Shown here: piece by piece, positions 16,462 through 19,750 of the stretch
Layout of the letters: every line of letters begins with the position of its first letter
Position numbering within the stretch: position 1 is the first letter of the stretch
Origin: Enterobacteria phage Sf101
DNA: 38,742 bases
Direction: 5' to 3' (one strand)
Sequence record: KJ832078
Program-made: the position numbers and the translations under genes
The notes under the pieces: generated by a model
Seen by the model: only the letters and a program-made list of their open reading frames with translations
The model's database searches: none
Told to the model about the DNA's origin: nothing

Positions 16462-17634
16462 TTATTGATTGTTGTTTGTTAATGTGGGTATTAATTCTTT
16501 TACTAAAGTTGTGGTTTGTTTTGTTAATTTGATGAATGGCGTCTCTATTAATTTAAAAGTTAGGCATGATGTGAACGTAATAAGAAATGCAGTTGTGCTT
16601 ACCAGTATGATAAATGTATTTTCAGTGTAATTATTAGGAATAATCCACGTCATTAGGCAATAAAGGAATATCCCATGCAGAAGGTAAACGCTGTAGGTAG
16701 TTTCTCCTAGCTTTCTGGTTATATTTAATCTTAATATTCCATACAAATCACAACCTGATGCGATAATGATAAATGTTATTCCACAAAGAATCAGTGGTAG
16801 CGGTGCGTAAGTTGTTTTGAAATACGTCATTTCAAAAATCATTATCGCAGTTATTATAATTGGTGTTACTTTTGCTTTGGCAATTCCATTGACTATCTTT
16901 GATTTATTTAGCAAAAATGCCAGGAGCCCAAAAAGAAATGATACTATGTGTATTTTACTGAAAAATAAAATGAAAACAAATAGCGATATTGCGCTAATCA
17001 TAACCATGTAAATACTGACTTTTCTTTTTATGAGCGCGGAAATTACCGGAAGAGAAAAATAAAAGAACCATTCATATACAAGTGTCCATGTTACAGCGGC
17101 ATTGATAGTAAATGAATCTTTTACGTCATTAATGTTCGGCATACCTAGTGCAGTGAATGGCAACCACTTCATTATTGACACAAAAAGCTCTTCTGTGGAT
17201 ACCTGCATTCTCCATCCAGACTTAAAACCTACAATGATAAAAATGAGACATAGGCTAACTATGAACATTGGGGTTAATCGTAGTAATCTTGATACATAAA
17301 GCCTTGTCCAGTCCTGATCTCCAGAGATAATCTTTGAAAAGAACAGATAACCAGTAATCATAAAAAAGAATGACACACCAACTTGGCCTAAATTTGCTAA
17401 CAGATTTGATGAAGGTGCTTCCCATACTCCAGATGACAAGTATCCATTCCAAATTGCTGCGTGATGAATAAGCACGAAAATTGCTAAGAACCCCCGCATT
17501 CCATCTATTTGATTATTCCTGCCGTGCTCAACAAGATTTATTGGGGAAATTTTATCAAATAACCCCACAGCTAATAACGACATCAATATCACGGATGTTA
17601 TTAATAATAAACTGTTAATTTCAATCATATGCAT
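16462..17634 (-). CDS. Acyltransferase-3 family integral membrane protein (putative O-antigen acetyltransferase)
   Basis: 390 aa, multiple hydrophobic segments; N-terminal family signature (NQIDGMRGFLAIFVLIHHAAIW); strongly AT-rich relative to the rest of the genome; sits between tailspike and attP/int like oac in Sf6 and gtrABC in P22. Confidence 0.8.
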   Translation of the reverse strand: MHMIEINSLLLITSVILMSLLAVGLFDKISPINLVEHGRNNQIDGMRGFLAIFVLIHHAAIWNGYLSSGVWEAPSSNLLANLGQVGVSFFFMITGYLFFSKIISGDQDWTRLYVSRLLRLTPMFIVSLCLIFIIVGFKSGWRMQVSTEELFVSIMKWLPFTALGMPNINDVKDSFTINAAVTWTLVYEWFFYFSLPVISALIKRKVSIYMVMISAISLFVFILFFSKIHIVSFLFGLLAFLLNKSKIVNGIAKAKVTPIIITAIMIFEMTYFKTTYAPLPLILCGITFIIIASGCDLYGILRLNITRKLGETTYSVYLLHGIFLYCLMTWIIPNNYTENTFIILVSTTAFLITFTSCLTFKLIETPFIKLTKQTTTLVKELIPTLTNNNQ

Positions 17635-18097
17635 GCTCTATTACGCAATTAAAATTTCTCCAAGTATACTGACTTTTAGTTAATGATAATATAGTTATGT
17701 GTAACTGATGAAACAAAACGGAGACACACCAAGCTTTGCACTGGATTGCAAGGCTTTGCGCTCTTCGATAGTGGTTAAGGTGGGTCACTCCACCTTTTCA
17801 TCAATCCAGTCCGCCAACCACTGCATCATTTCTCTGCGCTTAACGTAGCGGATGCCTCACTATCACATAGTGATGGTTCATTACTGCTTTGTAGAATGGA
17901 CAGAGAACTGAGGATAAAAAGATATCCCAAAACCCCAAAAGCTCATCTTTAGGATTTGCAGAAAGGTAGTCATGAACAGATACCTGCGCATGAAGACGGA
18001 ACTAGTCCAGATGTGATATTTGTGGTGATCGCATACATCATCAACGATGCTCGTTATGGTGAGTTTGATGACTACCCACTGAGGTGAAAATTGTGTT

Positions 18098-18119
18098 GTG
18101 TACCAAATTGTGTACCAAA
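18098..18119 (+). repeat. Candidate integrase arm-type sites (2 x GTGTACCAAA)
   Basis: Tandem ttGTGTACCAAAttGTGTACCAAAtt at 18098-18107 and 18110-18119. Confidence 0.45.
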
Positions 18120-18347
18120 TTAAAATCATAAACCATGAAACCCTTACTCATGGCAGTCTCAGGCTGGGTGCGCGTAATCGTGAAAGAGGAAGGTAGGTTG
18201 TTTATCTGTGCCTGTCATTGTCTAGCATTGTCCACTGTAGTTAATTAACTGTCTGTTATAACTCGAAAAACAACCCTTTTTTAACCTGAGTATGTCTACG
18301 AACGTCAAATATAGTTGTTTACTGTGCGCTGTTGTCCATGTGATATT

Positions 18348-18392
18348 GTGTACCAGATGTGTACCAAACCATTATTTTTGAGCGTACCAAAT
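18348..18392 (+). repeat. Candidate integrase arm-type sites (3 copies) just upstream of int
   Basis: GTGTACCAGA (18348-18357), GTGTACCAAA (18359-18368), GCGTACCAAA (18383-18392); int ATG at 18400. Confidence 0.45.
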
Positions 18393-18399
18393 ATTATTT

Positions 18400-19578
18400 A
18401 TGGCTATAAGCGACACAAAACTGCGTACTATTTATGGTAAACCATATTCGGGCCCACAAGAAGTGGCTGATGCCGATGGCCTCAGCGTACGAATTTCACC
18501 GAAGGGGGTCATCCAGTTCCAGTACCGCTATCGCTGGCATGGCAAGCCTAATCGACTTGGGCTTGGTCGATACCCATCCCTGTCTTTGAAGGATGCCAGA
18601 CAGATCACTGCTGACTTGCGAAAGCTCTATTTCTCAGGAACGGATCCACGCACTTATTTTGAAGAGAAGGTGGAGAACTCCATGACGGTCGCCCAGTGTC
18701 TCGACTACTGGTTCGACAACTACGTCTCTACAACTCTCAGAGAAAAGACCCAGGCACTTTACCGATCAACGGTTATGAAGCGCATGCATGACGCCTTCCC
18801 TAATCGTCCGGCATCTTCTATCACGGTTAAGCAATGGGTTGACCTGCTTACCGAAGAAGAAAGAGATAATCCACGCCGAGCAAGGCAGGTGCTAAGTCAA
18901 CTAAGATCAGCAATAAGTTGGTGCATGCGGCGTCAGTTGATAGATAGTTGCGCAATTATGAGCATCCAGCCAAGGGACTTCGGCTCACGCGCTGAGGTAG
19001 GGGATCGGGTACTGTCGTATCACGAACTGGCTAAGATTTGGCTTGCTATTGAAAGAAGCCGTGCTTCTACGTCAAATAAGCTGCTTCATCAGATGCTTAT
19101 GCTGTGGGGGGCGAGGCTCTCAGAGCTTAGGCTGGCAACAAAGACAGAATTTGACCTGCTGGACAACGTATGGACCGTACCGAAAGAGCATAGCAAGATG
19201 GGCAATGTTATCCGCCGTCCAATCTTCGAACAAATTAAGCCTTTCCTCGATAAAGCCATGACAACGTACAATGATGTTCTTTTCCCTGGAGAAGACATAA
19301 ACAAACCGATCAGCATCGCTGCAGCCAACCGATTCGTAAATAGAATAAGGGGAGGGATGGATATAGGTTACTGGCGAACACATGATTTCAGAAGAACGCT
19401 TGTTACACGTCTGTCCGAGATGAATGTCGAGCCTCATGTTACTGAGCGAATGCTCGGTCATGAACTTGGCGGGATAATGTCCGTATACAATAAACACGAC
19501 TGGATAGAGGCTCAGCGCAAAGCGTATGAGCTTCACGCTGATAAATTGTTCTGGCACATCAGGAGCATTTCTGATTAA
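18400..19578 (+). CDS. int: Tyrosine integrase
   Basis: 392 aa; C-terminal catalytic-type motifs (GARLSEL, HDFRRT, LGHE...SVYNKHD); preceded by arm-type repeats. Confidence 0.9.
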   Translation: MAISDTKLRTIYGKPYSGPQEVADADGLSVRISPKGVIQFQYRYRWHGKPNRLGLGRYPSLSLKDARQITADLRKLYFSGTDPRTYFEEKVENSMTVAQCLDYWFDNYVSTTLREKTQALYRSTVMKRMHDAFPNRPASSITVKQWVDLLTEEERDNPRRARQVLSQLRSAISWCMRRQLIDSCAIMSIQPRDFGSRAEVGDRVLSYHELAKIWLAIERSRASTSNKLLHQMLMLWGARLSELRLATKTEFDLLDNVWTVPKEHSKMGNVIRRPIFEQIKPFLDKAMTTYNDVLFPGEDINKPISIAAANRFVNRIRGGMDIGYWRTHDFRRTLVTRLSEMNVEPHVTERMLGHELGGIMSVYNKHDWIEAQRKAYELHADKLFWHIRSISD

Positions 19579-19750
19579 CGCCACCGTTAAGAATCCACCC
19601 CTCAACAGCTTCACGAAGGTATGATTTGGGGTGGGTTCTGACTGGCTTCGGAAATCCGTGCCGTTTGGTATAGTTCCAGATTGTCTGACGTGATGAAACA
19701 CCGAGCTTGTTCATCACTTCTTTCTCAGGAATCAGGCTGGTATCGGTCAT
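19559..19750 (-). CDS. AlpA/Xis-family HTH protein (putative excisionase / regulator)
   Basis: 63 aa; MTDTSLIPEKEVMNKLGVSSRQTIWNYTKRHGFPKPV resembles the AlpA-type helix-turn-helix; convergent with int and overlapping its 3' end by 20 bp. Confidence 0.65.
   Translation of the reverse strand: MTDTSLIPEKEVMNKLGVSSRQTIWNYTKRHGFPKPVRTHPKSYLREAVEGWILNGGVNQKCS

Follow-up and report, generated by a model that had tools for sequence, protein, structure and literature searches.

The attP site of phage lambda, which is recombined by a heterobivalent tyrosine integrase, extends over about 240 bp, with the arm-type sites P1 and P2 on one side of the core and P′1, P′2 and P′3 on the other; integration and excision of lambda each call on a different subset of these sites. 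In the KplE1 (CPS-53) prophage, the int promoter lies inside the int-side arm, where it is overlapped by arm-type sites and by sites for the excisionase (RDF), and negative autoregulation has been demonstrated (PMC2951348). The RDF sites of KplE1 are GTTCG-like pentamers arranged in two blocks, and IntS and the RDF are transcribed separately (PMC2951348). Those bound by the RDF TorI (GTTCG/GTCCG) are five in number, form 2+3 blocks and are all located on attL (PMC2951348). In phi24B, int is inverted and CI-independent, with its own promoter (PMC3064807). For Sf101, the 13-bp attP and a junction PCR of the integration have already been published, in a paper with 0 mentions of arm-type sites (PMC4159516). 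Records of the 2851 type, to which Sf101 belongs, annotate the 13-bp core only and no arm sites. In the literature searched, no account of the arm sites of the Sf101-type Int family was found, nor any binding, footprint or mutational work on them, and a search with the motif string returned unrelated primer sequences only.

The window analysed here is the whole 38,742-nt sequence of Enterobacteria phage Sf101 (KJ832078), a P22/Sf6-like podovirus of Shigella flexneri with oacB. Its gene order, tailspike, acyltransferase (PF01757) and int, is the one published for Sf101 (PMC4159516), and int is followed by a convergent xis-like gene.

18400-19578, + strand: int, tyrosine integrase of 392 aa (ORF, Pfam, PHROG 1 integrase).
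19559-19750, − strand: xis-like gene (AlpA/excisionase-type) of 63 aa (PHROG 66 'excisionase and transcriptional regulator', E = 1.9e-8).

Two Pfam domains make up Int, namely PF13356 (Arm-DNA-bind_3) at the N-terminus (residues 4-85, E = 8.3e-18) and PF00589 in the catalytic part (residues 204-366, E = 1.4e-16). With the integrases of 2851, mEp234, HK544 and related phages the protein shares 98.7-99.5% identity (98.7% with 2851 Int, and 98.7-99.2% over 2851, 1717, mEp234 and HK544), which, with an identical 13-bp core, fits Sf101 into the 2851-type (sbcB) module. In 2851, the Stx2c phage 1717, mEp234 and HK544, the core, the sbcB target and the five repeat positions described below are the same as in Sf101, and the surrounding phage alone differs. 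The int gene begins 215 bp to the right of the core, from which it points away, and the early-left operon and xis are encoded on the opposite strand. The xis-like ORF overlaps the 3′ end of int and is labelled AlpA family in the mEp234 annotation. Its assignment as an excisionase is backed by PHROG 66 only, with no Pfam match for Xis and no significant similarity between Sf101 Xis and TorI in BLASTP.

The crossover site is delimited by the junctions of lysogens. Megablast of 17400-18700 against complete E. coli genomes gave matches in 945 of 5426 genomes; among the matches listed, with annotated integrase and sbcB, int-side homology in lysogens begins at 18173 (query base 774). Megablast of 17640-18190 places the end of far-side homology in E. 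coli lysogens at 18185 (query base 546). In an alignment, the 13 bp between these limits are common to the Sf101 attP, the K-12 attB and both junctions of prophage 1717; they correspond to the annotated 13-bp duplication in 1717, to the annotated 'type 2851' attP in mEp234 and to the attP published for 2851 and Sf101. In the host, the attB core lies within the 5′ end of sbcB, a protein gene and not a tRNA gene.

18173-18185, no strand assigned: attP common core CGTAATCGTGAAA (lysogen junctions, four-way alignment, 1717/mEp234 annotation, PMC4159516).
18173-18218, − strand: phage-borne surrogate sbcB 5′ end, beginning MTGTDKQPTFLFHDY (annotation of lysogen L003, translation).

A first-pass annotation of this DNA, made from the sequence alone, had located an attP core between two clusters of repeats, and this is where the junctions put it, with one cluster on each side. 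The alignment with host genomes that it had proposed as a check has delivered both core and attB, with junctions inside the interval. It had taken core and host target to be beyond identification by eye; both are identifiable and published. Its remark that no tRNA-like segment was to be seen is borne out by a tRNA scan and an Rfam scan, which found no tRNA gene and no Rfam family in the whole window. The interval from about 18095 to 18392 is a complete attP of the 2851 type.

Integration replaces the native first 16 codons of sbcB and its whole upstream region by phage sequence. In lysogen L003, the annotated sbcB CDS begins 46 nt within phage DNA, and the minus strand from 18218 to 18173 encodes MTGTDKQPTFLFHDY, where the native start reads MMNDGKQQSTFLFHDY. 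The promoter of sbcB in lysogens is presumably supplied by the phage; a sigma-70 scan of 17600-18500 gave no consensus match for it, and only a weak candidate could be read by hand. Since in lysogens the full hybrid sbcB begins with this phage-borne start codon, ExoI expression there depends on phage upstream DNA. In the free phage, this start codon opens a 19-codon mini-ORF (MTGTDKQPTFLFHDYAHPA followed by a stop codon; 18159-18218, − strand) that crosses the core. The K-12 attB core is set in GTTTC-N8-GAAAC, plausibly a pair of inverted core-type half-sites.

A particular arrangement was observed in the chromosome of E. coli O157:H7 MB9-1 (L132, 4001-4986), and also in H31 and H32, where the match is continuous across the core. 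In L132, an attP-like junction, intact and with int behind it, comes directly after prophage genes (tail fibre and nleG7), which is most simply read as two tandem prophages at sbcB with a hybrid attP regenerated between them.

The core is bracketed by five short direct repeats.

18098-18107, + strand: R1, GTGTACCAAA, candidate arm-type site of the far arm.
18110-18119, + strand: R2, GTGTACCAAA, candidate arm-type site of the far arm.
18348-18357, + strand: R3, GTGTACCAGA, candidate arm-type site of the int-side arm.
18359-18368, + strand: R4, GTGTACCAAA, candidate arm-type site of the int-side arm.
18382-18391, + strand: R5, GCGTACCAAA, candidate arm-type site of the int-side arm, 8 bp 5′ of the int ATG.

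All five had been reported in the first pass as sharing one orientation, and all five are indeed present on the + strand; the AT-rich stretch of about 230 bp said to separate the clusters measures 228 bp, with a G+C content of 39.5% against 47.4% for the window. The longer repeat unit approximates TTG(T/C)GTACCA(A/G)A(T/C), and start-to-start distances are 12 bp for R1-R2, 11 bp for R3-R4 and 23 bp for R4-R5. About 53 bp separate R2 from the left edge of the core and about 162 bp the core from R3, so that R1-R2 lie ~54-75 bp from the core on a short far arm and R3-R5 ~163-206 bp from it on a long int-side arm. The motif GTGTACCAAA occurs on both arms in one orientation and is not found in the core sequence. 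Both close spacings are unique in the window, with a single instance of GTAC-N8-GTAC (R1-R2) and a single instance of GTAC-N7-GTAC (R3-R4).

Short repeats are frequent in AT-rich non-coding DNA such as this, and R1-R5, of only 10 bp, could be chance or slippage duplications devoid of function, as the other two-copy repeats of the region appear to be. However, when the 10-mer GTGTACCAAA was sought with at most 1 mismatch on both strands of the whole window, 8 matches were obtained against 1.94 ± 1.59 in shuffles, none of the 100 shuffles reached at least 8, and 5 of the 8 matches are packed into 295 bp. Furthermore, R1-R5 contain the only GTAC tetramers of the 700 bp from 17700 to 18400, and their layout is kept across genera where the flanks have diverged to ~45% identity. 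Chance is hardly credible in view of these data, and the comparative data effectively refute it.

Relatives of Int were gathered from GTDB genomes, IMG/VR and phage records. The int-proximal GTAC triplet of direct repeats was found in 36 of the 37 non-redundant relatives, R3 and R4 being exactly 11 bp apart in every carrier and R4 and R5 20-24 bp apart. In most genomic relatives with upstream sequence (40-99% identity), a complete divergent sbcB ORF is found ~180 bp upstream of int; these include Buttiauxella, Erwinia, Pantoea, Serratia, Tatumella, Rosenbergiella and Rahnella, and also Orbus, Gilliamella, Photobacterium and Parendozoicomonas. In E. coli relatives, R2 reads GCGTACCAAA, a variant also seen at R5, and the far-arm sequence is almost the same in all of them throughout, starting ~140 bp left of the core; footprinting within these far arms is thus uninformative, and attPs from different genera were used instead. 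Six lineages with an intact attP (Int 49-100% identical, targets sbcB, argW or unknown) are listed below, with offsets counted from the int start; for five of them the core could be mapped.

Sf101: Int 100%; pair at −300/−288, core at −227, triplet at −50/−39/−16.
L068: Int 72%; pair at −300/−288, core at −226, triplet at −49/−38/−15.
Salmonella phage SEN34: Int 61%; pair at −302/−290, core at −227, triplet at −50/−39/−15.
Stx/argW type L115: Int 57%; pair at −296/−284, core at −217, triplet at −52/−41/−17.
Pantoea phage AH07: Int 55%; pair at −293/−281, core at −215, triplet at −50/−39/−15.
Cronobacter phage ENT39118: Int 49%; pair at −280/−268, core not mapped, triplet at −38/−27/−7.

The two sites of the far-arm pair are always 12 bp apart, and the distance from pair to core is ~50 bp in the five lineages with a mapped core. 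The R1-R2 block retains 79% identity to Sf101 in L068 and 63% in SEN34, and the spacer from R2 to the core retains 46% and 42%, respectively, with its length kept at 51-53 bp. The 3′ half of the motif varies by lineage (CCAAA, CAGAA, CATAA or CAAAA), and it does so in concert at all sites of a locus, giving the lineage forms GTACCAAA, GTACAGAA, GTACATAA and GTACAAAA.

Two relatives depart from this pattern. In Photobacterium marinum (L031), the motif is GCGTCCAAA, present three times with the 11-bp and ~24-bp spacings seen elsewhere; the repeats lie ~40-95 nt upstream of the int start, further away than usual, and the N-domain of Int is more divergent. In Klebsiella sp. BIGb0407 (L030, ~2890-2970), a long tandem array of TGTTCAC (an RDF-like motif with a 7-bp unit) replaces the upstream region, a single GTAC site is left and the translated N-terminus of int is aberrant; the module is probably in decay.

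A change of target leaves the layout intact. In the argW clade of Stx2a phages (phage 86, VT2phi_272), whose Int is ~57% identical to that of Sf101, argW takes the place of sbcB: the prophage occupies its 5′ end, its first ~22 nt form the core, and this tRNA gene and int point in divergent directions; the prophage thus replaces the 5′ part of the tRNA gene and its promoter. The 2+3 GTAC layout and the int/xis arrangement are as in Sf101, the motif being GTACAGAA/GTACAGGA and the int start codon TTG or GTG. An assignment of this clade to the relatives of KplE1 IntS was considered and rejected, as K-12 IntS is only 22% identical to Sf101 Int and its target is at the 3′ end of argW, a gene that reads in the same direction as intS. 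Persistence of the layout when the core switches from sbcB to argW indicates that the repeats go with Int, whatever the target. As judged from sequence comparison, the constraint on both sequence and geometry at the two arms is the behaviour that would be expected of arm-type sites, and the initial reading of the repeats as candidate sites of this kind gains from the PF13356 domain of Int and from a 2+3 layout that is kept down to 49% Int identity with differing cores.

The fixed distances of R3-R5 from the int start in 36 of 37 relatives would equally be expected if these repeats were int expression elements only (operator, promoter or leader) and R1-R2 had nothing to do with recombination. 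Two observations point in the same direction. In the argW clade (L089, L097-L100, L115, L128 and L131, Int ~55-57%), R5 has the form GTGTACAGGA and includes AGGA before the start codon. In six Pantoea, Serratia and Erwiniaceae relatives (L010, L011, L012, L035, L070 and L074), an SOS-box-like CTGT-N8-ACAG (e.g. TACTGTATATGTTCACAGTT) is found at ~−104 to −93 from the int start, against a background of 29 such patterns in 732 kb of loci. This box, absent from Sf101, suggests that LexA controls int or the surrogate sbcB promoter in the six relatives, and supports the view of the region as an int control region across relatives. Yet R1-R2 are parted from int by the entire prophage after integration, and their position and 12-bp spacing are kept in 6 of 6 attP lineages and in E. 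coli far-side junctions. Given this conserved far-arm pair, a role in expression alone is insufficient and very unlikely to be the whole account. The two roles are compatible, and both are part of the explanation preferred here.

Another question is which protein occupies the repeats. An excisionase (RDF), or some other phage or host regulator, could bind the GTAC repeats, the arm sites of Int being elsewhere or unneeded. RDFs too bind short direct repeats, as do the five TorI sites in their 2+3 blocks (PMC2951348). The xis-like gene travels with int in all relatives inspected, so co-inheritance alone cannot say which of the two proteins binds. Covariation of Int N-domain residues with the GTACC and GTACA motif classes was sought, and no clean determinant was found. 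However, TorI sites are confined to one arm (attL, PMC2951348) and the GTAC motif is present on both. The N-terminal domain of Int is dedicated to arm binding and is strongly conserved across relatives, in line with the invariant GTAC. Moreover, a separate set of repeats, on the int-side arm only, suits the RDF role better.

18200-18339, + strand: six degenerate GTYCRY repeats, starting at 18200, 18230, 18251, 18294, 18317 and 18334 (motif scan).

On the + strand, all six belong to the int-side arm and none to the far arm. In Erwinia-like relatives, GTYCRY repeats are strictly 10-bp phased in two blocks (in L008, −169 and −159, then −105, −95, −85, −75 and −65). Their resemblance to the TorI pentamers makes them candidate excisionase sites, and binding of the GTAC repeats by a regulator in place of Int is considered unlikely.

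The reading that best accounts for these data, and one held with good confidence, is that the GTAC repeats are the arm-type sites of Int, arranged 2+3 in a complete attP, with the triplet placed over the int promoter or leader and a proposed part in autoregulation. Occupation of the repeats by Int and by no other protein, the position of the promoter and the autoregulation are inferred. Strand exchange would occur in the 13-bp core, with the N-terminal Arm-DNA-binding domain of Int bound to R1/R2 and R3-R5 and the catalytic domain bound to the core, so that Int would bridge arms and core in a folded, lambda-like integrative intasome. One motif on both arms in one orientation fits the requirement of a heterobivalent integrase.

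After integration, R3-R5, the RDF-like sites and int remain beside the hybrid sbcB, and R1-R2 pass to the far junction next to dacD. With attP located 5′ of int, integration does not part the triplet from int, and because int adjoins the attachment site and points away from it, its promoter has to be within the int-side arm. R3-R5 would hence cover the int promoter or its 5′ leader in the prophage, and Int bound there, probably together with Xis on GTYCRY, would be expected to repress int by analogy with intS of KplE1.

18318-18347, + strand: candidate int promoter, TTTACT, 18 nt, TGtGATATT (extended −10 type), weak and hand-read.

The TGtGATATT element of this candidate is at 18339-18347, and the block CATGYRATATTG abutting R3 is kept in many relatives. 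This weak candidate could start int transcription within R3. The sigma-70 consensus scan of 17600-18500 gave no int promoter at threshold either, and the overlap between triplet and int promoter accordingly rests on a weak match.

The comparison with lambda reveals likeness and difference. Five arm-type sites, candidates in Sf101, are split 2+3 about a short core, over ~300 bp in Sf101. Sf101 differs from lambda in the arm-binding family of its integrase (PF13356), in an attP located upstream of int with the triplet abutting the int start codon, in an int transcribed away from the core from what is probably its own promoter, in the single orientation of its five sites and in the lack of recognizable IHF sites. 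For the latter, the IHF consensus with at most 1 mismatch gave 44 matches against 44 expected, of which a single one falls in attP, overlapping R4, and none is callable. With KplE1, Sf101 shares an int that adjoins the attachment site and is transcribed away from it, and its GTYCRY repeats are like the GTTCG pentamers. It differs from KplE1 in that the target gene is divergent from int and has its 5′ end replaced, and autoregulation is proposed in Sf101 by analogy only. The inverted, separately promoted int of phi24B is compatible with such a scheme, the likeness being one of arrangement.

The core, the sbcB target and the module type were already known. What is new, and modest in extent, is the map of the arm sites and its conservation across Int relatives. 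This provides a base-level map of the Sf101/2851-type attP, with its core, five candidate Int sites and candidate excisionase sites. In Shigella, this module moves the O-antigen acetylase gene oacB, and in E. coli O157 it moves Stx2c/Stx1a prophages. A self-limited int is predicted for lysogens, where sbcB runs on a start codon and upstream region supplied by the phage, and the conserved layout may help to find the attPs of related integrases in other enterobacteria. The current understanding of site-specific recombination is unchanged, and the site is an ordinary integration site.

A broader proposal, plausible but put forward tentatively, is that the 2+3 GTAC layout, together with 10-bp-phased GTYCRY repeats, is the signature of a large undescribed integrase family that inserts at the 5′ ends of genes and whose triplet throttles int. 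If so, its members would be 49-100% identical and found in Enterobacterales and Orbales, and with a switched motif in Vibrionaceae; both Stx2c phages of the sbcB type and Stx2a phages of the argW type would belong to it. Insertion would always be at the 5′ end of a divergent target gene, with a surrogate 5′ end and promoter supplied, and the arm sites next to int would overlap its promoter, leader or ribosome-binding site. Bound there, Int would serve both to assemble the intasome and to throttle its own synthesis, and this would bear on lysogeny and superinfection by Stx phages.

Other elements are found in and beside the far arm. Between R2 and the core, a consensus scan detected a terminator-like element.

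18132-18154, − strand: hairpin followed by a T-run, terminator-like for leftward transcription.

In the far-side junction, this hairpin would face transcription from the detached native sbcB promoter. Its candidacy as an insulating terminator was rejected, the folding energy being no better than that of shuffles (z = −0.17).

Further left, two gene remnants precede R1. At 17788-17841 on the − strand, stop codons are followed by what remains of an IntS/Sf6-type integrase gene, its 3′ tail (KRREMMQWLADWIDEKVE, up to its stop codon). This tail is identical to the C-terminus of K-12 IntS at 16 of 18 residues, accompanies the 2851-type module in mEp234 and 2851 as well, and is a relic of an earlier argW-type int module. 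At 17833-18087 on the + strand lies a truncated umuD/humD-like (S24 peptidase) pseudogene with an internal stop; it matches residues 45-128 of an intact HumD from an E. coli relative with 74% identity, and its stop codon lies 10 bp before R1.
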